From assembly GCA_002315655.1 (NCBI GenBank), contig DCHO01000065.1, positions 3,161-67,160 on the forward strand: 64,000 bases of DNA, written 5' to 3'. The position numbers were made by a program, and so were the translations under genes. The notes below the pieces were generated by a model. That model was not told where the DNA came from. It searched no databases and was given only the letters and a program-made list of their open reading frames with translations. Origin of the DNA: Christensenella sp. UBA1750. Lineage in GTDB: Bacteria > Bacillota > Clostridia > Christensenellales > UBA1750. Positions 25,269-55,838 of this stretch are shown here, in pieces. Within the stretch, counting starts at the first letter, position 1; every line of letters begins with the position of its first letter.

Positions 25269-25278
25269 CAGTTTTCTT

Positions 25279-26136: not shown

Positions 26137-26216
26137 AACACTTTCTCCTTCCGTCGGATTCACTCCGAACCTGTAATCCCTTTCATCATACCATCGAACC
26201 GCCCGTTTTTCAACAT

Positions 26217-26252
26217 AAAAAATCCACCCCGGCGAAAACCGAGGCGGATTTT
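26217..26252 (-). terminator. probable intrinsic terminator after the lipoprotein gene
   Basis: Imperfect stem AAAATCCACC / GGCGGATTTT (one mismatch). On the minus strand it is followed by TTTTTTATG. Confidence 0.4.
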
Positions 26253-26265
26253 GAAACCGATTTGC

Positions 26266-27009
26266 TTACTTCACGGTGACGGAAGTAACGTGGGGCTGAG
26301 AACCTTCGTACCAGTAGAGGAAGCCTTCGACATCCACGGTCTGACCGACCTGCAGCGACTCGACAGCCTTGTAAACGTCGGTGGAAGAATCGCAGAGGTA
26401 GGACTCCACGGAGAAGGTGTAGGTGTTGCCATTGATGGAAGCGTTGAAGTACAGGTCATCACCCTGCGCGCCGGAGCCGTCCCAGTTGTAGAGGAAGGCC
26501 GCGCCGTTGTCGTCAGCCGCTTCAACGGTCAGACCCTTGAAGGCAACCTTCATGTTCTGCTTGGCGATGAGGTCATCGGTGCCCAGCAGGGAGGTCACGT
26601 CGACGGGGTCGGCAACGTACTTATCGTTTTCGATCTCGAAGGTCGCATCCACGATCTCGATCTCGCCGGACCACTCAGCCTTGTAGCCCTTCACCTTGAT
26701 CTTGGTACCGGGAACGAGCTTGGCATAGTCTTCTTCGGAGCAGGCCGCGCCGTAGAGGAAGTAGCCGCCCTCGCCGTCCTGGGCGTAAATGGTGGCGGTG
26801 TTGTCCCACCAGGACTGGGCACCCTGTACGAAGGCTTCCACAGTCACCTCGGAATCGATGGGAGCCGCTGCGTACTCGGCGTAAGTCATAACACCTTCGG
26901 ACTTGGCGTTGGGATCGACCTTGGCGGAAGCAGCGCCGCCGCCGGCAGAACAGGCAGACAGTGCAAGCACCAGTGCCAGAGCCAGAACCACAGAAAGAAT
27001 CTTTTTCAT
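26266..27009 (-). CDS. lipoprotein of unknown function with two related beta-rich halves
   Basis: Signal peptide plus lipobox LALSAC. AAGGAGAA RBS before the ATG at 27009. Two halves share the pattern V.VEGF/KGY...E..-type strands. Confidence 0.65.
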   Translation of the reverse strand: MKKILSVVLALALVLALSACSAGGGAASAKVDPNAKSEGVMTYAEYAAAPIDSEVTVEAFVQGAQSWWDNTATIYAQDGEGGYFLYGAACSEEDYAKLVPGTKIKVKGYKAEWSGEIEIVDATFEIENDKYVADPVDVTSLLGTDDLIAKQNMKVAFKGLTVEAADDNGAAFLYNWDGSGAQGDDLYFNASINGNTYTFSVESYLCDSSTDVYKAVESLQVGQTVDVEGFLYWYEGSQPHVTSVTVK

Positions 27010-27110
27010 TTTGTATATTCTCCTTTGCAAACATAATTTGCAGATTACGGGTTCATTATAAAATCAGGATGTTAATTCATGAAATGTTTTGTGTATCGTT
27101 TACGCAATTT

Positions 27111-28577: not shown

Positions 28578-29449
28578 CCTTTAATGCCTCCTCGAATAAC
28601 GCCTTCAAATATTTTTTTGCGGAACACAAAGAACACGATGATGAGCGGCACGGAAATGACCACCACAGAGGCCATCATTGCGGGAATGTTCTCGCGCCCG
28701 AAGCCGTTCTCGCGGATGTATTGGATGCCGTTGGAAACAAGGAAATAATTGTCGTCATCGGTGATAAGCCTCGGCCAGACATAGGAGTTCCAGCACTCGA
28801 TGACTTTGAGAATCACAATGGTGATGAGAATAGGCTTGGAGATGGGCAGCATTACCTTCCACAGATACTTGAAATCCCCCGTGCCGTCCACCTTCGATGC
28901 GTAGTACAACTCCTCCGGGATCTGTTGGAAGTGCTCTTTGAGCAGATACAGGTAGAAGATGGAAGTCACCGACGGCAGGATGAGTCCCGCAAAGGTGTTG
29001 CGCATTCCAAGGGAAGTTACGGTGACAAAGTTGGTGATCACCACCAATTCGTTGGGAATCATCATCAAAGACAGCAGCAGCGCAAACGCCAGATTCTTGC
29101 CCGGAAAATTGAGCCGCGCAAAGGCATACGCCGCAAGAATGATGACCAGAAGCATGAGAATCGTTGTCACCACCGTAAAAATGCAGGTGTTGAGCAGATA
29201 TTTTGCCAGCGGCACCTCAGAAAACGCATTGACATAGTTTCGATAAGTCGGATGCAGGGTGAAGAATTTCGGGGTGTATTCCGCATTGTACGCACCGTAA
29301 TCTTTAAGGGAGGAAAGCACCATCCAGTAAAAGGGGAAAAGTACGATGAGCGCCCACACTCCGAGCAGCAGATAGCGAAAAAAGTTCCAGATAAAGGAGT
29401 TGACCTTTACACGCTTCTCGATCCTGCGAAAATCATACGAGTTCTGCAT
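28574..29449 (-). CDS. carbohydrate ABC transporter permease (MalG/UgpE-like)
   Basis: Six predicted TM segments and an EAA-like loop (ELYYASKVDGTGDFKYLWKVMLP). Confidence 0.85.
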   Translation of the reverse strand: MQNSYDFRRIEKRVKVNSFIWNFFRYLLLGVWALIVLFPFYWMVLSSLKDYGAYNAEYTPKFFTLHPTYRNYVNAFSEVPLAKYLLNTCIFTVVTTILMLLVIILAAYAFARLNFPGKNLAFALLLSLMMIPNELVVITNFVTVTSLGMRNTFAGLILPSVTSIFYLYLLKEHFQQIPEELYYASKVDGTGDFKYLWKVMLPISKPILITIVILKVIECWNSYVWPRLITDDDNYFLVSNGIQYIRENGFGRENIPAMMASVVVISVPLIIVFFVFRKKIFEGVIRGGIKG

Positions 29450-29461
29450 ACGTCTCCTCCT

Positions 29462-30352
29462 TTAGTAATAGGTGTGCTTCCTGCTGACCATGAGGTTGAT
29501 CAGGGTGATGGTGAGCACGATGAAGAACAGCAAAATCGCCGCCGCCGAGGCGAAGGACGGGAATCCGCCGGAATCGCCGTAGAGCATATCGTAGATGTAG
29601 CCCACAATGGTGTTCATCTGCGCGGCATTTAGGTTTGTCCCGAACAGCGCCACCGCATCGGAATAGGCCTTGAACGCCCCGATGAAGCCCGTGATGACTA
29701 AGTAAGAAACCGTAGGCGAGATCATAGGCAGGGTGATGCGTGTGAAAATGCGGGTGCGGGAGGTACCGTCCACGCGGGCGGCGGAATAATAGGTCTCATT
29801 GACCGAGGCCAGCGCGGAGGTCAAGATCAGCACCTTGAACGGCAGCACGATCCATATCGTGTAGAAGCACAGCACGAACATCTTCGCCCAATATGGCCCG
29901 TCAATAAAGTCAACGGAGCCTGCTTTGAACCACGCCAGCATCAGATTGATGAGCCCGTCGGTGTAGGCGGTCTTTTTGAACAGAATCATAAAGACCAAGC
30001 CAACCGCCAAAGTGTTTGTAATGTAGGGCAGGAAATACACCGTCTGAAACAGGCTTTTGAGCCTTGGCGCAGAGGACAGCGCCAGCGCGATCAGCAGCGC
30101 AAAGGTCGTGGACAGAGGCACGGTGATGAGCACCAAGATAAACGTGTTCTTCACTGCCTGCAAAAAGTACGGGTCGTGCAAAATGTAGGAATAATTAAAA
30201 AAACCTATGCCGGAATAGCTCTGGGAGGCGAAATTGTAGCCCTCCTCAAAGGAATACACAAACACGTCCACCAGCGGATACAGCAGAAAGACAACGATAA
30301 ACACGAGAGCCGGCAGCAGATACAGCCAGCCCTTGAAGCTCTTCCGATTCAT
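29462..30352 (-). CDS. carbohydrate ABC transporter permease (MalF/UgpA-like)
   Basis: Six TM segments and an EAA-like loop (ETYYSAARVDGTSRTRIFTRITLP). Confidence 0.85.
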   Translation of the reverse strand: MNRKSFKGWLYLLPALVFIVVFLLYPLVDVFVYSFEEGYNFASQSYSGIGFFNYSYILHDPYFLQAVKNTFILVLITVPLSTTFALLIALALSSAPRLKSLFQTVYFLPYITNTLAVGLVFMILFKKTAYTDGLINLMLAWFKAGSVDFIDGPYWAKMFVLCFYTIWIVLPFKVLILTSALASVNETYYSAARVDGTSRTRIFTRITLPMISPTVSYLVITGFIGAFKAYSDAVALFGTNLNAAQMNTIVGYIYDMLYGDSGGFPSFASAAAILLFFIVLTITLINLMVSRKHTYY

Positions 30353-30364
30353 GCTCTGCCTCCG

Positions 30365-31453
<1,089 letters not shown>

Positions 31454-31635: not shown

Positions 31636-32412
31636 ATGTCATTGCAAAAGCTCACCATCAAAAACATGGCTTCCTTTGTTTCTGACCTTATAACCGGGCT
31701 CTATTCCGGCACCCTGCAATATGATGAGAACCTGATCACGGAAGATTCCATCTGGCTCGGTGCCTACAGGGGACAGGTGCTGAAAGGGCGCGATGCCATC
31801 TCGGAAGCCATGGCCAAAAAAGAGCTGGTCGGTCAGGCGATCTTAGGTCCCATCTACACAAAAACAATCGTTTTGGGCAAAAAACATTGTGAGACGATTT
31901 CCGAATTTGACCGCACGCTCATTCTCGATAACGGCCAGCAGTCCATGGGACACGTCCGCATTCACGCCACCTGGGTCAAAAGAGTGCGCTGGCAGATCGC
32001 CGTCACTTCCGTTCAGTCTCTGATGGTAAGGGATGATTATCCGCAGGTCTTCGCCCTGCATACGCCTCTGACCCCGCCCTCCGAACAGAAGCTCATGCTC
32101 CGCGAAAAGGGAACGGACAACACCATCTTCATCCAGCCCTCGATGATTGAATGGGTCGAGAACGACTCCCACTATTCCACCATCCACATGAAGGACAAGG
32201 TCATCACCGTTGGCATCGAGCTGCGCGACCTTTACAGACGCTGCGAAGGCACGCTCATCCTCTGCCACGCCTCTTACCTCATCAATCCCATGATGGTCAC
32301 CTCCATCAAGCGCTTCTCCCTGACCCTGCAAAGCGGTGTAATCCTGCCCATCCCCGAAAAGCGCTATACCTCCGTCAAACGGCAGCTTCTGGAAATGACC
32401 AAAGGCAAATAA
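31636..32412 (+). CDS. one-component transcriptional regulator: NTF2/SnoaL-like N-terminal domain plus C-terminal LytTR DNA-binding domain
   Basis: The C-terminal about 100 aa match the LytTR pattern (IFIQPSMIEWVENDSHYSTIHMKDKVITV...LILCHASYLINPMMV...LQSGVILPIPEKRY). The N-terminus looks NTF2-like (HVRIHATWVKRVRWQIAVTSVQS). No receiver domain. AAGGAGG RBS. Confidence 0.75.
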   Translation: MSLQKLTIKNMASFVSDLITGLYSGTLQYDENLITEDSIWLGAYRGQVLKGRDAISEAMAKKELVGQAILGPIYTKTIVLGKKHCETISEFDRTLILDNGQQSMGHVRIHATWVKRVRWQIAVTSVQSLMVRDDYPQVFALHTPLTPPSEQKLMLREKGTDNTIFIQPSMIEWVENDSHYSTIHMKDKVITVGIELRDLYRRCEGTLILCHASYLINPMMVTSIKRFSLTLQSGVILPIPEKRYTSVKRQLLEMTKGK

Positions 32413-32434
32413 AGACGCTTTCCGCAACATACAA

Positions 32435-32476
32435 ACGAACCCCGAAGGTTTTCGCCCTTCAGGGTTCGTCTTTTTC
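32435..32476. terminator. intrinsic terminator between the convergent regulator and the SGNH gene
   Basis: 14-bp stem ACGAACCCCGAAGG / CCTTCAGGGTTCGT (one mismatch), followed by CTTTTTCT. Confidence 0.75.
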
Positions 32477-32510: not shown

Positions 32511-33614
32511 TCAATCCTTCAAAATCCCGATGTTGCAGATTTCAAAAATCGTGCCCTTGTGCTTGCCGCCTGGGAGGGGCGGCAGGGTTTCCAGCTCAAA
32601 GGTATGTTCTCTGTTTTCCAGATTCTTTTCCAGCGTGATTTCCTTTGTCCAACCGAGGTCGGAGATCCAGTCGGGGCGCGGATAGCGCATTTCCTTCCAC
32701 TCCCCGCCGTCAATGCGGTAGCGGTAGTCCGCCGCCAGCCAGCCGAAGTTCGTGATTATCACAAGCCCGGTGCCTGTGAAATCGAAGTTCGCCTTTGCGC
32801 CCACAGCAGAAGTCGCCAGCACAAAGTCCACCTCGGTCAAGTCCATCATGTGCTTCATCATCCAAGGCCCCTTGCGGTTCACCTTGTTTAGTGGGTAGAG
32901 TTCCGCCCGCTCCCAGTTGTCCGCAAACAGGGACGCGGTGGTGCGGCACAGCCCGGTTGGGTTCTCGTCCGCAACCGCCTTTTTTAGCAATTCCACAACC
33001 GGTGCGGCGTAGAAACGGGAGCCTGTGTTGGCGGGGTGCAGCCCGTCGGGCAGCCATTCCTCCCAGCGGAGGGTGCCCGCCTTCGTGCAGTCCAGCGCAT
33101 AGGAGCTCATGAACACGGAGGAAATGCCGTAATGCTCCGCAAGCACTTCGTATTCCGCGATGGAATCGGGCAGCTTTCCTTCCAGCATATCCGGCAGGAA
33201 GTCGATACAATAGGTGTAGGTGATGACCAGATCAGCCTTGGTTTGATTCAGGAACTTGCGGATGAGCCCCTCGCGGCTGGCAGAACGCTCATCGGTGGGG
33301 ATGCCGGTGTCGTTGACGGCGTATTCCATGAAAATGAGGTCGCAGTCGTAGGGAATCAGGCGGCTTTCGCAACGCATCACCGCGCCCGCGGAGCCCGTCG
33401 CGCCAATGGCAATGTTCACCACGGTAAACGCCACATCGGGGTATGCCGCGACCAGCTCGTTCATCACATATTCCGGCCATCTCTGCCGCCCTCTGGGGTC
33501 GGTGATGGAGCCGCCGACGAAGCCCACCGTGGCCTGCTTTTTCTCGGTGATGGCCTTCTTAAAGTTTGACATATTACGGTAAATCAAGTAAGAAGAAAGC
33601 GGTTTCATGTTCAT
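32511..33614 (-). CDS. cytoplasmic SGNH hydrolase (putative carbohydrate de-O-acetylase) with a C-terminal beta-sandwich-like extension
   Basis: All SGNH blocks present: FVGGSITD (Ser), AIGATGS (Gly), EYAVNDTG (Asn), DGLHPAN (Asp-x-x-His). No signal peptide. 4-nt overlap with the activase gene. Confidence 0.75.
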   Translation of the reverse strand: MNMKPLSSYLIYRNMSNFKKAITEKKQATVGFVGGSITDPRGRQRWPEYVMNELVAAYPDVAFTVVNIAIGATGSAGAVMRCESRLIPYDCDLIFMEYAVNDTGIPTDERSASREGLIRKFLNQTKADLVITYTYCIDFLPDMLEGKLPDSIAEYEVLAEHYGISSVFMSSYALDCTKAGTLRWEEWLPDGLHPANTGSRFYAAPVVELLKKAVADENPTGLCRTTASLFADNWERAELYPLNKVNRKGPWMMKHMMDLTEVDFVLATSAVGAKANFDFTGTGLVIITNFGWLAADYRYRIDGGEWKEMRYPRPDWISDLGWTKEITLEKNLENREHTFELETLPPLPGGKHKGTIFEICNIGILKD

Positions 33615-34465
33615 TCTCCTTTTGCTGCACGGAACAGCTTCATAAATTCTTTTAGATCTTCCTCCGAAACGGACGAAAATTTCTGCATTTCAATCGCCAA
33701 TGCACGTCCCTTGTTGATGCCGAAGGTGTGATAGGGCATTAAGTCCACCCGCTCCACGGGCAGCTTGTTGACAAAATCGGCCATTTTGCCCATTTCCTCC
33801 ATCGTCCCGTTGCACTCCGGCACCACGGGAATGCGAATCCACATCCGCGCCCCTTTTTCGCTTAGATATGCGATATTCCGCAAAATCACCGCATTGTCCG
33901 CGCCCGTGAAGGCCTTGTGGATTTCGGGCGATAGAGCTTTCAAGTCCACTAAGAATAAATCGGTGTAGGGCAGCACGCGGTCTAAGGTCTCCCGCGGCAC
34001 ACACAGCGCGGTGTCCACCGCCGTGGAAATGCCGTTTTCTTTAAGGGCTTTGAGAAATTCTTCCGCAAAGTCGATTTGCAGCAGACATTCCCCGCCGGAA
34101 AGCGTCACGCCGCCGTCGTCGTAGTAGAAGGGTTCCTCTTCTTTTGCGATGGCCAGCAGCTCATCCACGGTGTATTCCTTCCCCATCAGCACCCGCGCCC
34201 GGTGCGGGCAGACCTCGGCGCATCTGCCGCAAGCCACACACTTTTCCTTATCCCGCAAAGCGTTGTGTTCGCACACGCGCTCACACAGCCCGCAGTGCAG
34301 GCACTTGTCGGCATAGAAAAGCATCTGTGTCCTTTTGTCCCAGCTTTCGGGGTTGTGGCACCATTTGCAGCGCAGGTTGCAGCCCTTGAAATAGAAGGTC
34401 GTGCGAATGCCGGGGCCATCTACAAAGGAGCCCCGGCTGATGTCAAATATCTGTGCCTTAATCAT
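33611..34465 (-). CDS. glycyl-radical enzyme activating protein (radical SAM)
   Basis: GPGIRTTFYFKGCNLRCKWCHNPE (CxxxCxxC), plus two ferredoxin-type clusters CLHCGLCERVC and CVACGRCAEVCP. I prefer the ATG at 34465 (MIKAQIFDISRGS...), which overlaps the GRE stop by 8 nt. The ORF-track start is 34501. Confidence 0.88.
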   Translation of the reverse strand: MIKAQIFDISRGSFVDGPGIRTTFYFKGCNLRCKWCHNPESWDKRTQMLFYADKCLHCGLCERVCEHNALRDKEKCVACGRCAEVCPHRARVLMGKEYTVDELLAIAKEEEPFYYDDGGVTLSGGECLLQIDFAEEFLKALKENGISTAVDTALCVPRETLDRVLPYTDLFLVDLKALSPEIHKAFTGADNAVILRNIAYLSEKGARMWIRIPVVPECNGTMEEMGKMADFVNKLPVERVDLMPYHTFGINKGRALAIEMQKFSSVSEEDLKEFMKLFRAAKGE

Positions 34466-36599
34466 CGTGTTCGTTTGCGCGGTAGCGGTGGATGATCTCA
34501 TCCTGCGTGCCGTCGTCCAGTCGGGTGAAGAAGCCGGAATAGCCCGTCACGCGGACGCGGAGGGAGCCGTAATCCTCCGGGGTCGCCTTGGCCTTTTCCA
34601 GATCGCCCGCCTTCAAATAGGTGGGCTGCAGCTGCAAGCCGCCCAAGCGGATGAAGGTCTCATAGATGCGCGCCAGCTTCTCCATCTTTTCGTCCGTGTC
34701 CGCCATGCGCTCGTCCACGGTGATATTGGTGGCGGTGGGGCCGATGAAGAAGGAATTGTCGATCTTGGAGACGGATTTTAAGTACGCGGTCAGGCCGTTT
34801 CTCTGCTTGTCGCGCCCCGCGCCCATACCGTCGGAAAGATATTCCCCGGCGTAGCGTCCGTTGGGGCACGCGCCGGTCATTTTGCCCATGGAGGTGTTGG
34901 CGTAGTTGTAGCCCACATAGGAGCCGAAGCGGAACACGCCGCTCTTTTTCGGCGTGCGCAGGGCACAGATTTCTTCCAAGGTGGAGACGAACCGCGCCGC
35001 GATCCCGTCGGCATAGGCAATGTCGTTGCCCCAGTAGGTGTTGACCGACATCATCTCCTGCCGCTCCTTCTCGTAGCCCTGCCAGTTCGCCTTGGTCATC
35101 TTGGCGATTTCCGACAGCTTGAAGCGTTTGTGATCGTAGACGAAATACTTGATGGCGATTAAGGAATCAATCGCGTCCGCAAAGCCGTTGCACGACCAGT
35201 TGGAGGTGGAATGCCGCTGTCCGCGGGCGGTCAAGGATTTCGCCTTGTCGATGCAGTCCTCGATAAAGACGGAGGTGACGACGGAAACATCCTTTTCGCA
35301 CTCATCATAGTAGGCATCCGCCAGATCCATCATCTTGAAAATATCTTCTTTTAAGCACAGGCGGTACTTTGCATAGTATTCGTCAAAATCCGCTAAGGCA
35401 TCCAGCGAAGTGTCAAAGCCGTCCAGAGAACGCTCCATGGCTTTCAAGGGATTGAAGAAGCCCTGCGAGCCGGTGTGTCCCTTGCCCACGATCGTCCACT
35501 CGTTGCATCCCACCATAGTGTAACCCACGGCATCCTCATAGGGAATGCCCATCTTGATGAAGGCGGGAATGCGCACATCGTCGTTGGTGAAAACGATGTT
35601 GGACTGTCTGCGGTTGAATTTGGCAATGGTCTTGAAGTGCTCATGGGTGGTCTTTTTGTTGACGCGCACATTGCACTGAGGCCGCCATGTGGGCAATTCT
35701 GCCATGGCCTCCATGCAGATGACGCTCATCTCATTGAAGCCGTCCTCGCCGTGCTCGTCATAGCCGCCGATGGAGAAGGTGGTGTCCGCGCTTCTGTGCT
35801 CGGTGAAGCCGCCGCCGGGACGGGAGGAGAAGGCCTTGACCAGCAGTTCCCCGATGAGCTCCTTCGCTTCCTCGTGGTCAATGAGCCCCTTGTCCAGATC
35901 GGCCTGATAGAAGGGATAGAGGCACTGATCCATGCGCCCCAAGGAATCGGGCAGGAGCAGCCAGAATGCCCAGTACGCCTGCACCGCCTCGCGGAAGTTC
36001 TCCGGGCGGTTCCACGGCACCTTGCGGCACATCGCCGCCAATTCCGCGCTTCCCTGCTTTTCGTATTCGTCCGCAACGTGCTCAAAATAGAGCTTAATGG
36101 ACTCCACCACATATTCCATGGCAGATAAGAACTTTTGTTGTTCCTCGTTTCCGATGTGCGCCCCCTTGGAGAAGGCGATGCGATCCAGATAGCCCTTGAC
36201 GCCGTGTTTCAGCATAAAGGGGAAGTTGGTGCAGAAGTGATCCCAGTCAAGGAAGCACACGGGCGAATCGGGAATGTAGTCGCTGTGCTTGCGGAAATAG
36301 GCCGTGATGTGGGAAAAGCCGATCTTCTGATACAGGTCAGTCGGCATCGCCACCACCACGTTTTCGGTCTGCTCCTTTTCGGAGTGATCCAGCGGAATGG
36401 CGTTTGCAAAGCGGAAGAACCCCGCCAGCTTTTCGCCCTTAATCACGCGCACGGGCTGGGACAGAATGTACTGCCGGAAAAACTTCGCGCAATCCATGGG
36501 GTCTTCAGGGCGCAAGCCCTGCGCCGGAACATACAGAGATGTGGGGAAAATGTCCTCTTTCAGGGCTCTGTTGGCAAGTGCCATCACTCGTTCATTCAT
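34458..36599 (-). CDS. glycyl radical enzyme, PFL2/dehydratase-like, unusually short (713 aa), substrate unknown
   Basis: C-terminal glycyl radical motif LRVRVTGYSGFF. Cys loop TMVGCNEWT (Cys-x-Glu). NFREAVQAYWAFW and GRMDQCLYPFY motifs. AGGAGGAG RBS before the ATG at 36599. Confidence 0.88.
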   Translation of the reverse strand: MNERVMALANRALKEDIFPTSLYVPAQGLRPEDPMDCAKFFRQYILSQPVRVIKGEKLAGFFRFANAIPLDHSEKEQTENVVVAMPTDLYQKIGFSHITAYFRKHSDYIPDSPVCFLDWDHFCTNFPFMLKHGVKGYLDRIAFSKGAHIGNEEQQKFLSAMEYVVESIKLYFEHVADEYEKQGSAELAAMCRKVPWNRPENFREAVQAYWAFWLLLPDSLGRMDQCLYPFYQADLDKGLIDHEEAKELIGELLVKAFSSRPGGGFTEHRSADTTFSIGGYDEHGEDGFNEMSVICMEAMAELPTWRPQCNVRVNKKTTHEHFKTIAKFNRRQSNIVFTNDDVRIPAFIKMGIPYEDAVGYTMVGCNEWTIVGKGHTGSQGFFNPLKAMERSLDGFDTSLDALADFDEYYAKYRLCLKEDIFKMMDLADAYYDECEKDVSVVTSVFIEDCIDKAKSLTARGQRHSTSNWSCNGFADAIDSLIAIKYFVYDHKRFKLSEIAKMTKANWQGYEKERQEMMSVNTYWGNDIAYADGIAARFVSTLEEICALRTPKKSGVFRFGSYVGYNYANTSMGKMTGACPNGRYAGEYLSDGMGAGRDKQRNGLTAYLKSVSKIDNSFFIGPTATNITVDERMADTDEKMEKLARIYETFIRLGGLQLQPTYLKAGDLEKAKATPEDYGSLRVRVTGYSGFFTRLDDGTQDEIIHRYRANEHDD

Positions 36600-36659
36600 A
36601 TTGGCTCCTCCTGATTTTCGTTGTATTCATCCGTGATTCTGTTGTCAATTTGGGTGAAC

Positions 36660-37691
36660 CTAAAGGGTTTCCTTCCAACAGGCAACCGCTTTTGCAAAGC
36701 CTTTTAAGTGGCTGTCGTTGTAGTTGTTCTCTCCGTCCACGGTGGGGCAGATGAATGCGCCCTCCTCGAACTCATTCCACGCAAAGGCGAGGATGCGATC
36801 CGGCACCACATTGTCTTTGTTCGCCTTGACCCAATCGGCCAGACGTTTTGCGCCCTCCACGATCTCTTCCTCACTGGCGGGCAGAGCGTAGGGCACATCG
36901 GGATAGGTCGTCCACGGAATCGGGTGATCGACCCTCGGCTGCGGGTTCCAACCCAATGTGAAGTGCGGCAGCACCGGGATGCCGTAGCCCTTGCGGTTTT
37001 CGTTGTACTGCAAATTGCAGTCGATAACCTCGCTGTACCTGGTCGTGTTCAGCGCGCAGCAGGCGTAGGCGCACACCGCGTCCGCCTTGGAATAGTCCTT
37101 GTTCGGGTCAATCTTGCTGCCCCCGCCGCCTTCCAGGAACACGATATACGGCTCCTTTGTGCCGTATTCCTGCGGGAAAGCGCGCATTTTGGCGATAAAG
37201 CCCTCCTGAAAGCCGCCGTAGAGATAGACAAGCGGGCGGCCGTCCACGGTCTCATAATAGCTCTGCTTCATCGCCTCGGCCAGACGCGCCATGTCGCTCT
37301 CCACAAAGGGATGCAGACAGATGAGCAGCGCACAGAGGTGGATTTTGTCCGCATACTTACTGGTTTGGTGCAGATAGCGGGCGTGGTTCAGCTCCCAGAC
37401 GGTGTGATCCACGTTGCCGGGCTTGCCCTTGTCCTTCATGTGATCGTCGGTGTACCAGTCGTAGGCCATGTAGTCAATTCCGGCGGCCATGGCCAGCTCC
37501 AGCTCCCTGTCCACATCGGCCTGCGTCTTCTGCCGGAAAGAGACCTTTTCGCCCTCCACATTGGCATAGAAGGGCGTCACATTCCGAAACTTTTTGTAGC
37601 TTAAAACGGATGTGGAATGAAAGCCGAAGTAAGTGTCCTCCGGCAGGGAATTGTCCCAGTTGATTGCGCCGACGCGCAGTTTGTCATTCAT
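36660..37691 (-). CDS. hypothetical cytoplasmic protein, glycosidase-like TIM-barrel (tentative)
   Basis: 343 aa, no signal peptide. AFAWNEFEEGAFICPT resembles the WNEWxEG motif of GH99-like/WbsX-like proteins. GAAGGAGAG RBS. The family call is weak. Confidence 0.45.
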   Translation of the reverse strand: MNDKLRVGAINWDNSLPEDTYFGFHSTSVLSYKKFRNVTPFYANVEGEKVSFRQKTQADVDRELELAMAAGIDYMAYDWYTDDHMKDKGKPGNVDHTVWELNHARYLHQTSKYADKIHLCALLICLHPFVESDMARLAEAMKQSYYETVDGRPLVYLYGGFQEGFIAKMRAFPQEYGTKEPYIVFLEGGGGSKIDPNKDYSKADAVCAYACCALNTTRYSEVIDCNLQYNENRKGYGIPVLPHFTLGWNPQPRVDHPIPWTTYPDVPYALPASEEEIVEGAKRLADWVKANKDNVVPDRILAFAWNEFEEGAFICPTVDGENNYNDSHLKGFAKAVACWKETL

Positions 37692-37747
37692 GGTGTTCTC
37701 TCCTTCAATCTTTTAAGTTCAAGCTGCCGCTCTCTCGAGCTTATGTT

Positions 37748-39811
37748 TCACTCCGTTTTCAGCAGCAGCGTGTCGCCCTTTTTCATGTTGACGTCCACAA
37801 AGCACTCGTTTCCGGGCAAAGTCTCCCCGGTGAAAACCTCCACCATCCGGCACTTTTTCGGTACGTGAATGCGCTTGCAGCCGTCGGATGCAGCATGAAC
37901 GGCGATATAATCTTCGCTTGCGTACACCACATCCCCGGCGGTGTTGTAGAGCATCCCGGCAGCGCCGTTCAACAGGTCGCGCAGGGTGTTTTCCTCCGGC
38001 ACCATGGAAATGCTCGCGCAAACGGAAAAATTCTCCTCCCGCCGCAGCACGCAGAGAGCACCCATTTCGTCCTTTTTGAGCACAATGTCATGCTCCGTCA
38101 GCGCGATGCGGCGCAGCGGCGTTTCCACCGCGCCCATCTCCTGATTTTCGGGCAGTTTTTCGTTCCACGGCGCCTCATCCAAGACAAACCCGCTTGCCCG
38201 CTCCTGTTCCCCGCAGCCGAGGAACACAAGCGCCCGTCCGTCCTTTTTCCACTTTTCAAGGGCAGATAATCGTTCCGCCGTCCAGTCGCAGGGCGTGCAG
38301 AAGATCGCCATGCGGAAATTTTCCGGGTCAATGTCCGGTAGATCGTCCATCATGAACATTTTGTACGGCGCACCGATTTTGCCCAAGTGCTTCCACACCG
38401 CCTGATTCTGCGTTGCGGAAATCGCGCCGGGCGTAAAGCGGTAGAAGGTGGCATCATCCATAAACAGCGCGGTTTCGGAGGCGTTTGTGACCCCGCCGGA
38501 CAGCATGGTTTCCGCATAGAGCCGATAAGCCTTTTGGTGGAAATCCATGTACCGCTCGTCTTTGTACCAGCCGCCCCACATATCGAACCACCAGATGGCT
38601 GTATTGTGGGTGAGCACCTTTGCAAAGGCCTTTTTCATCTGCCCAAGCGAGCCTTCCACGGTGTCCGGGCCGTACCAGACCGGCCCGTCGTAGGCGCGGT
38701 TGACGTAAGGATCGGCCTTTTTGAAGCTCTCGGAGATCGGGCGGCTCAGATGCGTGCGCACGTCCGCCTCCATGAACCACGGTTTGCCGTGCAAGGCCGC
38801 CGATTCAATCGAGCCCTGAAACTGCCAGTCCACGCCCTGCCCGCGGTTGTCGGTGTAGGCAAAGGGGCTGGCGATAAAGTCCACATTTTCACTGGTAAAG
38901 AGCAGGGAAGCGGCGTGCTGCCCGGTCTCGCTGCTGCAGGCCAGATAGCCGTAAAACGCGCCGATGATCTGCTGATGCTCCGTCACGCGCTTGGCGGCGG
39001 CGCAGAGCGCGTCCGCGGCCTTCGCCATGCCCGCGTTCATAAAGGCATAGTAGTCAATCACGAACTTTTCGCTTTTCTCATCGTGCAGGGAGCCGTGATT
39101 GCCGTAAATGCGCTGCATGGCGGTGGGAAGGGAAATGTCCTCAAAGGAGGCAAACGACTTGCGCCACACCGCATTGGCTTTCTCGATGCTGCCGTACTTT
39201 TCCTTCGCAAACAGGCAGAAATCCTTCCGCGCCGGTTCGGAATAGTCGATCATCTGCTTGGGTCTGTGGTTGGGGCGGATAAATTCCTCCGTGTTTCCCG
39301 CCGCAATGTGCCAGCCGATGACGTAGCGATCCCAGCCGCTTTCCTGCACCCACTTTTGCAGATCGCAAAGCATTTGTTCCACATCCTCTATCCACTTTTT
39401 CGAGTGGAAGGACTGGTGCAGCGGCGTGCCGTGCGCATCCCGGCATACCTCGTTCGGGTTTTCCTCATCCCACCAGGAGGGCGCTTCCACCATCAGCCGC
39501 GGGATGATGTAGATTTCCCCGGGCTTGGAATTGCCCGTTACGGTGCGTAAATCCGCATCCACCTCGGAAAAATCGTACTTGCCGTAGCCCTTCCAGAAAC
39601 CGCTTCTGAACGGGCGAATGCCGCTGTTCTGGTTGATTCCCCGGTCACAGGCGTACATCGTGCAGAAAAACAGCCGCACCCCGATTTTCTTGAAATCCTC
39701 ATAGCAGCCCTTTTCCGGCTGATAGGTCAGATACGCATAAAGCGGCAGCTTTTCGCCGTTCACTTCCAGCAAAAAGGCGTTGCCGTGACGAATGATTCTG
39801 CTCTCCAACAT
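37748..39811 (-). CDS. cytoplasmic clan GH-A-like glycoside hydrolase (GH42/GH35-like, tentative)
   Basis: 687 aa from the ATG at 39811 (GAGGAAG RBS). The N-terminal barrel has WHIAAGNTEEF (an NE-type acid/base candidate), and the overall layout resembles GH42-type beta-galactosidases. The family call is not verified. Confidence 0.5.
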   Translation of the reverse strand: MLESRIIRHGNAFLLEVNGEKLPLYAYLTYQPEKGCYEDFKKIGVRLFFCTMYACDRGINQNSGIRPFRSGFWKGYGKYDFSEVDADLRTVTGNSKPGEIYIIPRLMVEAPSWWDEENPNEVCRDAHGTPLHQSFHSKKWIEDVEQMLCDLQKWVQESGWDRYVIGWHIAAGNTEEFIRPNHRPKQMIDYSEPARKDFCLFAKEKYGSIEKANAVWRKSFASFEDISLPTAMQRIYGNHGSLHDEKSEKFVIDYYAFMNAGMAKAADALCAAAKRVTEHQQIIGAFYGYLACSSETGQHAASLLFTSENVDFIASPFAYTDNRGQGVDWQFQGSIESAALHGKPWFMEADVRTHLSRPISESFKKADPYVNRAYDGPVWYGPDTVEGSLGQMKKAFAKVLTHNTAIWWFDMWGGWYKDERYMDFHQKAYRLYAETMLSGGVTNASETALFMDDATFYRFTPGAISATQNQAVWKHLGKIGAPYKMFMMDDLPDIDPENFRMAIFCTPCDWTAERLSALEKWKKDGRALVFLGCGEQERASGFVLDEAPWNEKLPENQEMGAVETPLRRIALTEHDIVLKKDEMGALCVLRREENFSVCASISMVPEENTLRDLLNGAAGMLYNTAGDVVYASEDYIAVHAASDGCKRIHVPKKCRMVEVFTGETLPGNECFVDVNMKKGDTLLLKTE

Positions 39812-39925
39812 CCATTTCTTCCTCACTTTCAGAAGAATACTAAACGATTTATAGCATAGCATATTTTGAATTAAGGTTCAACGAAATTCCCGCGCATTTT
39901 AGGCGGAAACCGCCTGTCAGATTGC

Positions 39926-40009
39926 CAAACAAGCCCTTGCGTTTCATTTTTGCAAGGGCTTGTTTGACAATCTGGCGCCTTCTGCCGATTTTTTTTCGAC
40001 AGAAGGCGT
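39926..40009 (-). terminator. two consecutive strong hairpins downstream of the AlkZ-like gene
   Basis: 15-bp stem CAAACAAGCCCTTGC (39926-39940) / GCAAGGGCTTGTTTG (39952-39966), and 9-bp stem CGCCTTCTG (39976-39984) / CAGAAGGCG (40000-40008). A clear U-tract is present only on the plus strand. Confidence 0.4.
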
Positions 40010-40013
40010 TGTT

Positions 40014-41051
40014 TTATTCTGTAAACGTGTTTTTGAGGATCATTTCCGTTTTTCTGCCAAAGCTCTTATGCAGCTGCACCTCAATGTCGTGCAGGTCGCT
40101 TTTCCGCAGCTTTTCATAGGGCTCCACCGTCACCCTGTCGTTTTCCTTCTTCCATGCCGCACGGATGCGCCCGTGCAGCAGAATGGACGGCCTGATGATG
40201 CCGGAAATGTTCGTGAGCTTGCCCAAGTGCTGTTTGTCGATCATCCTGTCCCGGAAACGGTAGCCCAAGATCATCTGGTCAAAGCCCGGAATCAGCACCA
40301 CCTTTGGAATCGCGCCGTCCGTAACCAAATCCCCTTCGTAGTAATAGGTTTTCCCCTCAAATTCCAGAGAATTGAGCGCCGGCAGAAGCATATCCAGCAG
40401 GGGATTTAACTCCGGCTTCTTTCTGTCACCGAAGAAATAGGTGCAGTCCTCCCGGGTCGCGGGGCCAAAAGACCTAAAATACCGTTTCAGAAACTCCATC
40501 CGCGCCGCATCCCGCTCCGGAATCGTGAACGGCTCCGGAATGCGATATTCCTTCGCCGTGCCTGTGCAACAGACGATGTGCCCGCGCATGACCATTTCCC
40601 CAATCAGCCCGCCCCAGCCGTAAAACACACGGGACAGCACATAATCGTCGATCCCCGCCGTAACGCACGCCGCTTTCAGCCCGTCCCGCGTGGTGTTGCC
40701 GCCCCTGACCTGCTCCACGATGAAGGGATCCCACCGATTCATATCCTTAGCTTTCATCATCCACATCCCGTCGTGGTAGGGCGCCAAATTGTCCGCCGCC
40801 GCAAGGTGCAGCCCCAATTCCTCCTTGGGAATCAGGTGCATGGTGCCCCGGTGCGACCAGATTTTATACAGGTTGTCGTCCCAGTGTTCTTCCGTGTAGT
40901 CGGACGCTCTTAATTGCAGAGACATTTTCGGGTAATTGGCAAACTGCGCCTGTAAGCCCATGAGGTCACGCAGAACTCTGTCCGTGGGTGCTTTTTCCAG
41001 CAGGTGCAACCCGCGCAGGGTGTGATAGAGCAGAATTTCCCGTTCCATCAT
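40014..41051 (-). CDS. winged-helix DNA glycosylase AlkZ/YcaQ-like protein
   Basis: N-terminal LRGLHLL...MGLQAQ...ASDY and later GTMHLIP motifs, typical of the AlkZ-like (HTH_42) family. ATGA overlap with the upstream gene. Confidence 0.65.
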   Translation of the reverse strand: MMEREILLYHTLRGLHLLEKAPTDRVLRDLMGLQAQFANYPKMSLQLRASDYTEEHWDDNLYKIWSHRGTMHLIPKEELGLHLAAADNLAPYHDGMWMMKAKDMNRWDPFIVEQVRGGNTTRDGLKAACVTAGIDDYVLSRVFYGWGGLIGEMVMRGHIVCCTGTAKEYRIPEPFTIPERDAARMEFLKRYFRSFGPATREDCTYFFGDRKKPELNPLLDMLLPALNSLEFEGKTYYYEGDLVTDGAIPKVVLIPGFDQMILGYRFRDRMIDKQHLGKLTNISGIIRPSILLHGRIRAAWKKENDRVTVEPYEKLRKSDLHDIEVQLHKSFGRKTEMILKNTFTE

Positions 41052-41443
41052 GCTTTCTTCCCCGTTTTGATAAAGGCAATGGCGCTTTCTATGTCCTCAA
41101 AGTCGTCATAGTCGCCGATGATGCCGCTTCTGTGATAGACCACACCGTTTTTCCCGTTGCGCTCCAGGCAATCCAGCAGCTCTTTCAGGCCGTATCTTCT
41201 CACAAACTCCGTAAAAGCGTAAGGTTTGACCTTCCCCAGCAGCCCTTCGCGGCAGTCCTTGTTTTCACACTCCCAGCACCCCGCAATGCCCTTTTCCTTT
41301 GAGCACTTGCGGTTTTTGCACCAGTCCTTGTCCGGGCATTCCCCCGAATTGCAGCCCGCGCAATGGGCATTTTCGCTGCAAAGGCAGCAAGCCAGCCCGC
41401 ACCGGGCAATTCCCAATTCTCTTTTCATGTTGCACCTCTCCAT
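41048..41443 (-). CDS. Cys-rich DUF3795-like protein
   Basis: CGLACCLCSENAHCAGCNSGEC...CKNRKC...GCWEC cysteine pattern, typical of DUF3795. Confidence 0.6.
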   Translation of the reverse strand: MERCNMKRELGIARCGLACCLCSENAHCAGCNSGECPDKDWCKNRKCSKEKGIAGCWECENKDCREGLLGKVKPYAFTEFVRRYGLKELLDCLERNGKNGVVYHRSGIIGDYDDFEDIESAIAFIKTGKKA

Positions 41444-41530
41444 GTTTTTGTCCTATACATCCCGGTTTCGATTTTCTCTGTCGGAGCAAACGCAAAATTG
41501 TCAATGTTTTTCTCCGTTTTCCGCAGTATA

Positions 41531-41950
41531 TCATTCCAGCCCTTCAAAAATTGCGCCCGCAAGGTTCGTAATGTCCTTGATCGGGATGGTTTTTTCACCA
41601 ATGAGGAACAGCTTTTCCTCCTGAATTTTCTGCGCCCGTCCCCAGAGCGTCACAACCTTGCCGCCTTCCTTTTTTGCGTCCTTCACAAAGAACTGCACCT
41701 TGATTTCCGGCAGCTCTCTTAATCTATCATAAAGCAAGTTGAGCCGTTCGTCCAGCATTTCTTCCTGACTTTCGCTCATTTCGATGCGCTGCAGCGTCAT
41801 GCGCCCCGCCTCGTCAATGACGTCCCCGAACCCCGACAGCGCCGCATAGGCCGCAAACTGCGCCGCCCGGTTGCCCTGCGGCATCCGTGGGTGCCTGACC
41901 GACAACGGTCGCCCGTGCCGCATCATGTCCCAATACCGATTGCCCTCCAT
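41531..41950 (-). CDS. YolD-like protein (accessory to Y-family polymerases)
   Basis: 139 aa, 25 nt downstream of the polymerase gene. The R..P..F.AF.AL.GF pattern (NRAAQFAAYAALSGF) is typical of the YolD family. Confidence 0.6.
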   Translation of the reverse strand: MEGNRYWDMMRHGRPLSVRHPRMPQGNRAAQFAAYAALSGFGDVIDEAGRMTLQRIEMSESQEEMLDERLNLLYDRLRELPEIKVQFFVKDAKKEGGKVVTLWGRAQKIQEEKLFLIGEKTIPIKDITNLAGAIFEGLE

Positions 41951-41974
41951 AATCCATCCTCGATTCGCTGACCG

Positions 41975-43501
41975 CTATTTCTTATGTCCGCCGATCATCC
42001 CGTTGCGCGCCTTCGCCGTCGCCCCTTCTTCCAGGTTCATGCCCATGAGCACCGCGTTTTTCCCGAATTTCCGGCGGATTTCCAGCACGGCCTGTGCTCG
42101 CTTCTTCTCCTTTTCCTCCCGCGCCAGCTCTTCCTCCAGCTTTTCCGGGTTTCCGAAATCCTCATCCAGCAGATTGAGCTGAATCTTTTCCCCGTCCTTT
42201 TCCAGCTCCTCCTCGGTCACAAGATTCCCCGCTGAAATCACCATGCGCCGCACCAGCAGACACGGGTCAGTGATGCGCGAAAAGATGCCCATGATGGCCG
42301 CAACCAGCACCTTTCCCGAGGAGGTTTTGTGCGGCAGGCGCGTGCTGCCGTGCACCGCCTTGGGCACCAACCGTCCGTAAAAGTCCTTCTCGATCACGCC
42401 CTTGTAATTCTCCCGCCGCTTGGGGTCATTGAGGTTCTCCACATCATACCCGATGTAGACCTCCACCTGATCGGTGAGCACCTTTCTGTCCACCAAGTCC
42501 AGTGCCAGCAGATCGGCCATCTCCTGCACCACAAGATAGGCTTTTTCGTTGGTGTAGGGCTCCGGCAGCACCTGTCCCGAGCTCAGGGAATTGTTGATGG
42601 GCTTATAACTTTTAATATCCTTGATGGTGCAGGGCTCATAGCCCCAGGCGTGGTCGATGATGAGCTCCGCATTGATGCCGAACAACTTGTAAAGCAGCTC
42701 CTCGTTGTGCGTGTCGCCCCGGGAACCGATGGAGCACCGCGCCACATCCCCCATGGTGAACATCCCGTATTTCTGCAATTTTCTCGCCGTTCCCGGCCCG
42801 ATGCGCCAGAAGTCCGTCAGCGGCCTGTGGCTCCACAGCCGCTCCCGGTAGGTGTATTCATCCAGTTCCGCGATACGCGCCCCGTTCTCGTCGGGCGGCG
42901 AGTGCTTCGCCTCAATGTCCATGGCGATCTTGCACAGGTACAGGTTGCTCCCGATGCCCGCCGTCGCCGTGATGCCCGTTTCCGTGTAAACCTTCTTGAT
43001 CATTTCCTCCGCCAGCTTCCGCGCCGACTTGCGGTACAGCTCCATGTACGGCGTGATGTCGATGAACACCTCGTCGATGGAGTAAACGTGCATATCGTCC
43101 TTCGACACAAACTCCCGGTAAATATTGTAGATGCGCGTGCTGTAATCCACATACAGGCTCATGCGCGGCTTTGCGCAGATGAAATCCAACTCCAGCCCGT
43201 CATTTGCCTTCAATTCCCGGTCAAACAGCGTCTTTCCCGTAAATTCCCCGCCCGGCGCGTGGCTTTTGCGGTAGGCGTTCACCGCGTTGACCCGCTCTTT
43301 CAGTTCAAACAGCCGCCCGCGCCCCGGAATCCCGAACCCCTTCAGCGCCGGCGACACCGCAAGGCAGATGGTCTTGTCCGTCCTGTCCTCGTCCGCCACC
43401 ACCAGATAGGTGTCCAGCGGGTCAACCTTGCGCTCCCGGCACTCCACGGAGGCATAGAACGATTTTAGGTCAATCGCCAGATAGGTCTTTTCCGCCTTCA
43501 C
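41975..43501 (-). CDS. Y-family (translesion) DNA polymerase, UvrX/UmuC-like
   Basis: YLAIDLKSFYASVECRERKVDPL N-terminus with catalytic Asp/Glu, SIDEVFIDIT, and little-finger region. I place the start at the GTG at 43501 (GGAAGGAGGG 8 nt upstream). The ATG at 43537 lies inside an SOS box. Confidence 0.85.
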   Translation of the reverse strand: MKAEKTYLAIDLKSFYASVECRERKVDPLDTYLVVADEDRTDKTICLAVSPALKGFGIPGRGRLFELKERVNAVNAYRKSHAPGGEFTGKTLFDRELKANDGLELDFICAKPRMSLYVDYSTRIYNIYREFVSKDDMHVYSIDEVFIDITPYMELYRKSARKLAEEMIKKVYTETGITATAGIGSNLYLCKIAMDIEAKHSPPDENGARIAELDEYTYRERLWSHRPLTDFWRIGPGTARKLQKYGMFTMGDVARCSIGSRGDTHNEELLYKLFGINAELIIDHAWGYEPCTIKDIKSYKPINNSLSSGQVLPEPYTNEKAYLVVQEMADLLALDLVDRKVLTDQVEVYIGYDVENLNDPKRRENYKGVIEKDFYGRLVPKAVHGSTRLPHKTSSGKVLVAAIMGIFSRITDPCLLVRRMVISAGNLVTEEELEKDGEKIQLNLLDEDFGNPEKLEEELAREEKEKKRAQAVLEIRRKFGKNAVLMGMNLEEGATAKARNGMIGGHKK

Positions 43502-43531
43502 GCTCCATGCCCTCCTTCCGCTCCTAAGCAC

Positions 43532-43590
43532 GCACATACGTTCCCCGCTTTTTCTATTTCAAGTATAAAACATACGTTCTCATTTTGCAA
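43532..43590 (-). promoter_or_regulatory. SOS-regulated promoter: TTGCAA-17-TATACT with two LexA (Cheo-type) boxes
   Basis: Minus strand: -35 TTGCAA (43590-43585), -10 TATACT (43567-43562). Box GAACGTATGTTT (43579-43568) fills the spacer. A second box GAACGTATGTGC (43543-43532) lies 36 nt downstream. Confidence 0.65.
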
Positions 43591-43706: not shown

Positions 43707-43792
43707 GCCGAAGTGGTGGAATGGCAGACACAAGGGACTTAAAATCCCTCGAGGGAAACTTCATGCGGGTTCGAGCCCCGCCTTCGGCACCA
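43707..43792 (+). tRNA. tRNA-Leu(UAA): tRNA-Leu, anticodon UAA, with encoded CCA
   Basis: Hand-folded cloverleaf: acceptor GCCGAAG/CTTCGGC, anticodon arm AGGGA-CTTAAAA-TCCCT, long variable arm, T-arm GCGGG-TTCGAGC-CCCGC, discriminator A plus CCA. Confidence 0.9.
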
Positions 43793-51593: not shown

Positions 51594-51728
51594 ATTCCGC
51601 TCCTCCATCCTCACAAAACGGACTATTTGCCCGTATATACTCTAACAATTATAGTATAACCCATTTGAAACAGAATGGAAACATCGCTGACCTAATTTTC
51701 GGGAAAATCTCCGCATTTTGCTGCCATA

Positions 51729-55774: not shown

Positions 55775-55838
55775 ATTCCTATCCCGGTTGTTTCCAATGA
55801 CATAACCGTTTTCGAGGAAACACAGATAGTCTCCTTCA

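Follow-up and report, generated by a model that had tools for sequence, protein, structure and literature searches.

Within a 64,000-nucleotide stretch of Christensenella sp. UBA1750 (GenBank assembly GCA_002315655.1, contig DCHO01000065.1, positions 3,161 to 67,160; hereafter the window), a five-gene operon encodes a glycyl radical enzyme (GRE) and its activase together with a GH42-like protein, a 343-aa protein of GH99/GH71-like fold, and an SGNH esterase. The GRE belongs to an unnamed family, here called the GCNE family after its Cys-loop motif, and what is new is the family itself: a coherent group from about 200 species that has no characterized member and possesses its own Cys-loop signature and gene partners, and that in this genome shares an operon with three CAZyme-like genes for intracellular proteins. 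The enzyme class is already known, as, since 2024, are sugar-acting GREs. With moderate confidence, we propose that the operon and its GCNE GRE provide a radical C–O cleaving enzyme for an unphosphorylated carbohydrate-derived alcohol. The original prediction called this locus a candidate new system, which is an overstatement because sugar-acting GREs are known and E. coli PflD is the best solved-structure match; its premise that GREs do not occur in sugar contexts is out of date, as the substrates of E. coli YbiW and PflD are phosphorylated anhydro-sugars (PMC13450708). The locus is better described as a new clade of a known enzyme class, probably with a new substrate.

A GRE family with a distinct cysteine loop

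Membership of the protein in the GRE superfamily is established by its PFL-like (PF02901, 2e-83) and Gly_radical (PF01228, 6e-16) domains, an RVxG glycine loop, a cysteine loop, and an adjoining cognate activase, and 35 homologous GRE chains among solved structures match it. The glycine loop (R683-V-T-G686-YSGFF) aligns with the corresponding motifs of PflD and HypD, as does the VGC365 portion of the cysteine loop (TMVGC365-N-E367-W), and His121 aligns with PflD H156 and YbiW H165. Judged by numbering, His121 probably also matches glycerol dehydratase His164, the proposed general acid. The activase is recognized by TIGR02494 (7.2e-92, 308 bits against a cut-off of 174) and contains a C29-X3-C33-X2-C36 motif (CNLRCKWC) plus two ferredoxin-like cysteine motifs. 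To judge from their sequences, both proteins are intact in their catalytic motifs and functional-looking. The CXE signature is kept in all characterized C–O, C–N, and C–S eliminases and in the three isomerases HplG, YbiW, and PflD, and its glutamate hydrogen-bonds the substrate hydroxyl (PMC13450708). Because Cys365-Asn-Glu367 conforms to this signature, the GRE is predicted to belong to the 1,2-eliminase/isomerase mechanistic class.

The GRE scores far below all NCBIfam equivalog cut-offs. The best-scoring equivalog model, PflD-type NF007437, gives 259.5 bits against a cut-off of 1109, followed by the models for HypD (250 against 1100), CutC (224 against 1050), and HpsG (223 against 1000); the glycerol dehydratase subfamily model TIGR01774 gives 304 against 678. 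Against the solved GREs of eliminase and isomerase type, all bit scores fall between 143 and 216, PflD being highest (8e-63). By BLASTP, the protein is 30% identical to E. coli PflD over residues 121–705 and 26% identical to YbiW, compared with 37% end to end between PflD and YbiW, and residues 1–120 do not align with PflD. In a neighbor-joining tree the whole GCNE family is monophyletic and stands apart from E. coli PflD and YbiW; within it, the window GRE groups with the GREs of related loci L001, L007, and L009, and next with those of L002 and L006. As the original prediction held, these cut-offs, identities, and tree positions place the GRE outside every characterized clade that could be tested. 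Basic residues common to PflD and YbiW were considered as phosphate binders and dropped, because R222, K255, and K373 also occur in HypD and class-wide conservation is inseparable.

Homologs retrieved from a collection of 5.8 billion proteins are uninformatively named, the few labels being hypothetical protein or formate C-acetyltransferase, and fall into two groups: a small clade 43–77% identical to the window GRE and a larger set of ~707-aa proteins that are 30–34% identical. When one genome from each of 185,579 species was scanned with the motif as guide, 198 relatives emerged, almost all from metagenome-assembled genomes of uncultured gut Clostridia/Oscillospiraceae, with a few from Lentisphaeria and Kiritimatiellia; the sole cultured host among them is Hydrogeniiclostridium mannosilyticum ASD2818 (locus L019). 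Scans of metagenome contigs, using the GRE alone or a 12-sequence alignment, returned ~95 pattern matches and no confirmed relative, and relevant records may lie outside the searchable set. C365-N366-E367 is invariant across 17 clade members, and TM[VI]GCNE is common to nearly all of about 90 family sequences. The residue after GCNE is Trp in the clade of the window GRE and Pro, Ile, Val, or Leu in the large branch. Literature searches found no biochemical data on any GCNE family member and no characterized GRE linked to sugars or to short-chain dehydrogenases/reductases (SDRs) beyond YbiW/PflD and the sulfoquinovose-pathway GREs.

In some genomes two or three family paralogs share one locus. 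L002 (8511–12762) and L003 (5505–9756) carry tandem GCNE GREs of 711 and 707 aa, one per branch, with overlapping stop and start codons and one shared downstream activase, while L020, L033, and L086 hold three family GREs each. Such arrangements suggest substrate diversification within a single locus.

Gene neighborhoods and flanking enzymes

To define the partners of the family, all open reading frames (ORFs) within 7 kb of the GRE were clustered in 90 related loci, and the full 10-kb flanks were searched with profiles of the operon proteins; synteny of the closest relatives was taken from nine contig look-ups of GRE homologs and the one-genome-per-species contig scan. Three partners recur: a divergent AraC-type regulator in 66 loci, the activase in 58, and, as the commonest enzymatic partner, an SDR in 29. 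The closest GRE homologs (74–77% identity) sit in SDR-GRE-activase operons, followed in L001 and L007 by an ATP-binding cassette (ABC) importer of the CUT2 monosaccharide type; a LytS-type kinase and an AraC-type response regulator are encoded close by. The binding protein of this importer lies at 7175–8161 in L001 and at 9301–10422 in L007. Among solved-structure homologs, the L001 binding protein is closest to 5XSJ/5XSS, structures of the xylose sensor XylFII, and to an arabinose binder. The response regulator adjoining this closest GRE homolog (L001, 9657–11615) is an unusual regulator-enzyme fusion, joining a receiver and an AraC helix-turn-helix to an aldose 1-epimerase domain.

Members of the clade at 58% identity occur in an operon encoding a GH38-like protein, an SDR, the GRE, a second GRE, an activase, a fructokinase-like PfkB protein, a mannose-6-phosphate-isomerase-like protein, and an aldose epimerase. 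Glycosidases in the 10-kb flanks of other relatives include GH20 (four times) with GH38, GH92, and, in one locus, GH78, GH16, GH95-like, and GH116 enzymes. Directly upstream of the GRE stand a GH78 enzyme in L016, whose GRE is 47% identical to that of the window, and one GH20 enzyme (L005). The 129 nearest non-core neighbors include M20 peptidases (10), phosphotriesterase family proteins (5), PfkB kinases (5), and GH78, GH2, GH123, and GH3 enzymes (two each). No phosphotransferase system (PTS) gene or fructose-6-phosphate aldolase was found in the annotated flanks of the relatives or in the window, and neither the window nor the annotated loci of relatives showed microcompartment genes.

The three enzymes that flank the GRE and activase in the window look carbohydrate-active, as the original prediction had claimed. 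The GH42-like protein matches Glyco_hydro_42 (PF02449, 1.2e-10, 41.8 bits against a cut-off of 21), and its three-domain AlphaFold2 model (mean predicted local distance difference test, pLDDT, 93.6) gives a full-length Foldseek match to GH42 beta-galactosidases (E 8e-26, TM 0.62–0.66, 13–15% identity), followed by GH35 and GH164 enzymes, at 10–15% identity overall. T174-E175-E176 and E348 (within WFMEAD) are invariant across 48 homologs, and these glutamates would fit a retaining clan GH-A enzyme. For the 343-aa protein, the sole Pfam match is a sub-threshold one to WbsX, and no sequence match was found among solved structures or NCBIfam families. Its model is a (beta/alpha)8-type barrel (pLDDT 95.4) whose best Foldseek matches are GH99 endo-alpha-mannanases and human MANEA and, equally, GH71 (E 2e-9, TM about 0.55–0.6, 10–14% identity). 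The motif W305-N306-E307-x-x-E310-G311, containing the NEFEEG glutamate pair, is invariant in 55 homologs, and the i/i+3 spacing of E307 and E310 is that of the catalytic pair E333/E336 of BxGH99, residues named in PDB titles and mutated in those entries; the comparison is one of spacing and not a residue-level superposition. The SGNH protein matches Lipase_GDSL_2 (1e-8), and its only significant solved-structure homolog is RiCEX (6HFZ/6HH9; phmmer, 4e-13, residues 27–215). S36, G71, N101, D190, and H193 align with RiCEX Ser41, Gly81, Asn110, Asp190, and His193, leaving the triad and oxyanion residues intact; the C-terminal ~150 residues have a length that fits a CBM35 lid and show no alignment to RiCEX. 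All three enzymes are plausibly carbohydrate-active and intracellular, and the GH42-like and 343-aa proteins probably represent distinct families or subfamilies.

Homologs of these proteins showed further variation. Five homologs of the 343-aa protein (P0253, P0257, P0264, P0277, and P0297) are about 505 aa long and carry an extra PF10688 domain, presumably the Imp-YgjV inner-membrane domain, which would put a glycosidase-like barrel on a membrane anchor. A common origin of the 343-aa protein and the ~355-aa protein of L002 and L006 was rejected, since the two show no similarity and the latter is mannose-6-phosphate-isomerase-like. At L098 (1409–5578), the closest GH99-like homolog (59%) is flanked by a distant GH42-like paralog (24% identity, E 2e-30) and by a lipoprotein that is 28% identical to binding-protein-like lipoproteins near GREs in L010, L021, L049, and others, a loose recurrence of the same protein families.

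Proposed reaction and alternative explanations

In the reaction that we propose, the activase would install a radical on Gly686 that transfers to Cys365, and the resulting thiyl radical would take a hydrogen from a carbinol carbon of the substrate, the hydroxyl of which would be deprotonated by Glu367. The ketyl radical would then expel the adjacent C–O substituent; loss of a hydroxyl would amount to dehydration, and loss of a ring or ether oxygen to isomerization, as in YbiW and PflD. The alpha-keto radical would finally regain a hydrogen from Cys365 to yield a carbonyl product. The presence of an SDR in relatives suggests that a carbonyl is made or consumed. The substrate would enter the cytoplasm through ABC import. 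In this genome, the GH42-fold, GH99-fold, and CE17-like enzymes may in addition free it from an O-acetylated oligosaccharide that has been imported, and would in that case feed the GRE. Because the family is associated with ABC importers and, in some relatives, a downstream PfkB kinase, whereas E. coli YbiW and PflD are associated with PTS genes, we infer that the substrate is unphosphorylated. It is most likely a neutral, carbohydrate-derived alcohol, perhaps a polyol, a sugar ring, or a hexitol of the anhydro or deoxy type; candidates, in no order of preference, would be a free 1,5-anhydrohexitol, a polyol aglycone, a sugar ring, or an O-substituted sugar.

A more far-reaching version of this proposal, which we advance only tentatively and regard as rather doubtful, is that GCNE enzymes are the first GREs whose direct substrates are glycan-derived sugars or sugar alcohols in unphosphorylated form. 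They would then constitute a radical route of entry into carbohydrate catabolism that depends on ABC import and is independent of ATP, in ~200 species of mostly uncultured gut Clostridia. In this genome the route would be wired to enzymes that deacetylate and deglycosylate an imported oligosaccharide inside the cell. Possible reactions in that case are ring-opening of a free 1,5-anhydrohexitol, dehydration of a hexose or polyol, and cleavage of an ether or O-alkyl group on a sugar.

Several observations weigh against reading the operon as a carbohydrate pathway built around a C–O cleaving GRE. Conservation of the five-gene synteny, by which the original prediction had proposed to judge itself, was not found: the arrangement is unique among the 90 related loci, whose flanks contain the GH99-like protein in no case, the GH42-like protein in one (L032), and the CE17-like esterase in two (L041 and L058). 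No SDR, the partner in many relatives, is encoded anywhere in the 64 kb of the window. Homologs of the GH42-like and GH99-like proteins sit alone in unrelated contexts that lack a GRE, so the flanking enzymes may not feed the GRE. The commonest non-core neighbor in the family is an M20 peptidase, then the phosphotriesterase family, and because the neighbors cover 112 Pfam families, the link to carbohydrates, though frequent, is not universal. The substrate-binding residues of YbiW and PflD could not be mapped onto the window GRE, and the references of the tree that sets the family apart were E. coli GREs only, plus one PFL-like outgroup. What survives of the originally claimed carbohydrate context is a looser link of the family to carbohydrate uptake and hydrolysis, which is real, if not universal: the wider family recurs near glycosidases, sugar kinases, and sugar ABC importers, while the setting of the window GRE itself is unconserved.

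The unconserved synteny would also be expected if the GRE and activase were unrelated to their neighbors, brought together in a mosaic operon by gene shuffling, and instead dehydrated a small diol or polyol from fermentation, for example glycerol or the 1,2-propanediol that rhamnose and fucose yield, with the SDR of relatives reducing the aldehyde as an electron sink. The GH78 rhamnosidase directly upstream of the 47%-identical relative, a GH42-like homolog that adjoins the rhamnose catabolism genes for RhaA, a kinase, and an aldolase, and the prominence of the SDR (29 loci) would all suit this explanation, as would the CXE motif and conserved His, which are suited to diol dehydratase chemistry. 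We nevertheless consider it unlikely, since the GRE reaches 304 of the 678 bits required by TIGR01774, its Cys loop reads GCNEW where diol dehydratases have GCVE, and the annotated loci contain no microcompartment genes. Moreover, the minimal operons of the closest homologs include a dedicated CUT2 monosaccharide-type importer and a sensor kinase, which would be superfluous for a small diol that diffuses freely.

The neighbors also bear on a quite improbable explanation in which the GRE is a C–N lyase that expels an amine beside a carbinol, as CutC and HplG do, from an amino-sugar- or Amadori-type compound, for example a reduced fructosyl-amino acid. C–N cleavage by CXE-containing GREs is established (PMC13450708), and M20 peptidases as the most frequent non-core neighbors, recurrent PfkB kinases, GH20 and GH123 hexosaminidases near some loci, and a TIM-barrel protein in the window (25279–26163) that weakly matches fructoselysine 3-epimerase (2e-7) can be read in its favor. 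Each of these links is weak or indirect, however: the M20 association lies mostly in the distant 707-aa branch (30–34% identity) and not in the clade of the window GRE, the TIM-barrel match scores 30.6 bits against a cut-off of 305, and the window operon lacks an aminotransferase, a deaminase, and an amino-acid transporter. Highly improbable, finally, is that the GRE is an ortholog of PflD or YbiW converting 1,5-anhydromannitol-6-phosphate or 1,5-anhydroglucitol-6-phosphate into 1-deoxyfructose-6-phosphate. PflD is its best solved-structure match (8e-63) and NF007437 its best equivalog model, it shares the CXE motif and a sugar context, and E. coli pflDC also neighbors an AraC-type regulator, yijO; yet its identity to PflD and YbiW is just 30% and 26%, against 37% between these two, its N-terminal 120 residues are unalignable, it branches outside the PflD–YbiW pair, and it reaches just 259 of the 1109 bits that NF007437 requires. 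Nearby, in place of a PTS, a fructose-6-phosphate aldolase, or a sugar phosphatase, are ABC importers.

Layout of the window and comparison with known systems

The operon is a run of five successive minus-strand ORFs spanning 32511–39811 (Table 1), all of them present where the original prediction had placed them. The GH42-like gene starts at an in-frame ATG at 39811, eight bases past the Shine-Dalgarno sequence AGGAAG, and an independent Joint Genome Institute (JGI) gene call likewise gives 687 aa. The predicted gaps of 56 and 60 nt and overlaps of 8 and 4 nt proved correct. Each gap contains a Shine-Dalgarno sequence; the activase ATG sits within ATGATTAA, giving the 8-nt overlap with the GRE stop codon, and a start at 33614 gives the SGNH gene its 4-nt overlap with the activase, the JGI start being two codons later. 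The claimed lack of an internal terminator also stood, as neither gap holds a hairpin followed by a T-run and, in a pattern scan, terminator-like sites were no commoner than in shuffled sequence (8 vs 11.1 +/- 3.8). Domain assignments of the five genes agreed with Pfam and TIGR02494 and, for the TIM barrel of the 343-aa protein, with the AlphaFold2 model. No hydrophobic stretch of the kind found in signal peptides was seen when the five N-termini were read by eye, again as predicted.

A hairpin with a T-rich tail that follows the last gene is likely, from its sequence, a bidirectional terminator closing the operon, and a second hairpin (about 39926–39966) comes after the upstream AlkZ-like gene, so the five genes are bracketed as a single unit. 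Between this hairpin and the first gene, a weak sigma-70-like sequence (TTGAAC-17-TATGCT, 39881–39853) falls below the threshold of the promoter scan and is a candidate promoter. By these features the five genes form a genuine operon that is predicted to be co-transcribed.

Table 1. Coordinates and features of the GRE operon and its immediate surroundings in the window.
Feature	Position	Strand	Remarks
GH42-like gene	37748-39811	-	687 aa; longest ORF extends to 39862
343-aa GH99/GH71-fold gene	36660-37691	-	ORF; unnamed family
GRE gene	34458-36599	-	713 aa; Pfam PFL-like and Gly_radical
GRE activase gene	33611-34465	-	284 aa, radical S-adenosylmethionine protein; longest ORF extends to 34501
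SGNH esterase gene	32511-33614	-	Two-domain, CE17-like, 365-367 aa; Lipase_GDSL_2
G+C-rich hairpin with T-rich tail	about 32431-32469		Between convergent SGNH and LytTR genes; read from sequence
Intergenic region upstream of operon	39812-39966	-	Hairpin, weak promoter candidate, Shine-Dalgarno; read from sequence
LytTR-domain regulator	31636-32412	+	Pfam LytTR 8.6e-11; between GRE operon and ABC operon
CUT1-type sugar ABC importer, four genes	27111-31453	-	ABC_tran/OB_MalK, BPD_transp_1 (two), SBP_bac_8; separate transcription unit

The original prediction placed a four-gene sugar importer and an NTF2-LytTR regulator beside the operon. Pfam confirmed the importer (a MalK-like ATPase, two permeases, and a solute-binding protein) and the LytTR domain, while NTF2 was undetected at E <= 0.01. 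The binding protein (27111–28577) resembles generic sugar binders among solved structures, including UgpB-like and arabino-oligosaccharide binders. Because no homolog adjoins any other family GRE, the LytTR regulator is tied to the GRE by position only; neither it nor a xylose-isomerase-like TIM-barrel protein encoded beyond the importer has a homolog in the 10-kb flanks of any relative. The latter is the protein at 25279–26163, whose weak match to fructoselysine 3-epimerase is its best in NCBIfam. It belongs to a same-strand stretch (24514–27030, minus strand) that follows the importer genes with short gaps and may make a nine-gene unit with them; this stretch encodes a 254-aa protein of no family, the TIM-barrel protein, and a methyltransferase-like protein, and is followed by a PGA_cap gene for a CapA-like protein of metallophosphatase fold. 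The window holds two PGA_cap genes, this one at the end of the ABC operon (23323–24507, minus strand) and another at 19141–20490 (plus strand). PGA_cap homologs also lie within 10 kb of a family GRE in six loci (L043, L052, L055, L078, L089, and L018), in L089 directly downstream and in the same orientation, an association that could be due to chance.

Directly upstream of the operon (40014–43537, minus strand) are two genes, one for an AlkZ-like DNA glycosylase and one for a DinB-family polymerase with an unusually long insert (520 aa), beyond which lies a single tRNA gene (43707–43789, plus strand), the sole Rfam match in the window, where Rfam gave no riboswitch. Four kilobases upstream of the operon, a giant ORF (43932–51614, minus strand) encodes a 2560-aa protein with GH20, BNR sialidase, GH2, FIVAR, and MucBP domains that, from this domain content, looks like a surface-anchored multi-activity enzyme degrading host glycans or mucin, and just past it is an FGGY sugar kinase gene (51729–53351). 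Further minus-strand genes encode a stand-alone condensation-domain protein (54365–55888), a 1243-aa MacB/FtsX-type permease (55940–59671), and an AMP-binding enzyme (60750–62492), which by their domains may form a small nonribosomal peptide synthetase-like or lipopeptide export cluster. The window also encodes SpoIVA, which together with the 2560-aa surface protein points to a spore-forming, host-glycan-degrading member of the Clostridia as host. The contig derives from JGI metagenome 3300001598 (EMG_10000278, 83.6 kb), and a near-identical copy of it occurs in 3300020112.

GREs of gut microbes carry out difficult anaerobic chemistry, including formation of trimethylamine, p-cresol, and H2S and use of hydroxyproline and anhydroglucitol, and a 2026 review notes that whole GRE clades are still without experimental validation (PMC13450708). 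The locus described here points to one such clade, marked by the TM[VI]GCNE motif, the set of AraC-type regulator, activase, and SDR, and a repeated association with glycan degradation; the operon hints at an unrecognized anaerobic step in carbohydrate breakdown, by an enzyme of an oxygen-sensitive type. If the substrate is indeed a free sugar derivative, sugar radical chemistry would reach past the two PTS-dependent E. coli enzymes, which would also account for the ability of uncultured Oscillospiraceae to use a carbohydrate not open to activation by polar chemistry. The question is made tractable by the minimal SDR-GRE-activase-ABC operons of L001 and L007 and by H. mannosilyticum as a cultured handle.

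The two glycosidase-like proteins share with GH42 beta-galactosidases and GH99 endo-alpha-mannanases their predicted folds, modeled with high confidence, and have glutamates where catalytic ones would be expected, but identity is only 10–15%, and neither protein reaches a model in NCBIfam or, in the case of the 343-aa protein, in Pfam. The SGNH protein resembles RiCEX, the CE17 cytoplasmic 2-O-acetyl-mannan esterase of Roseburia intestinalis, in its length (~370 aa), N-terminal SGNH domain, conserved triad and oxyanion residues, and predicted cytoplasmic location after ABC import. Unlike RiCEX, whose C-terminal CBM35 lid is needed for activity and for 2-O-acetyl-mannose specificity, it aligns in the SGNH domain alone, and the window lacks the mannan-utilization genes GH26, GH130, and GH113. 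The GRE itself shares the CXE motif, activase type, and a predicted abstraction of a carbinol hydrogen followed by loss of a vicinal oxygen with the C–O 1,2-eliminases (glycerol/propanediol dehydratase, HypD, and HpfG), but in place of microcompartment, aldehyde dehydrogenase, or proline-pathway genes, its locus offers a carbohydrate context.

The closest parallel is with E. coli PflD and YbiW, GRE isomerases/C–O lyases that act on 1,5-anhydromannitol-6-phosphate and 1,5-anhydroglucitol-6-phosphate in a pathway termed anhydroglycolysis (Ma et al. 2024, as reviewed in PMC13450708). These enzymes and the window GRE are alike in the PFL-like architecture, the CXE and RVxG loops, the aligned His, an adjacent ferredoxin-type activase, a setting in sugar metabolism, and an AraC-type regulator, found near the GRE in relatives of the window protein. 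The window GRE is 50–100 residues shorter, however, and the X of its CXE motif is Asn, with Trp after the Glu, rather than the Val or Ile of PflD and YbiW. The E. coli genes are located with frwCBD/ptsA/fsaB (pflD) and fsaA/ybiV (ybiW), such that a PTS feeds the enzyme and fructose-6-phosphate aldolases follow, whereas the GCNE family is accompanied by glycosidases and ABC importers, to which relatives add an SDR and a PfkB kinase, in place of the PTS, aldolase, and sugar phosphatase of E. coli. The substrate of the window GRE probably differs from those of PflD and YbiW and is unphosphorylated.

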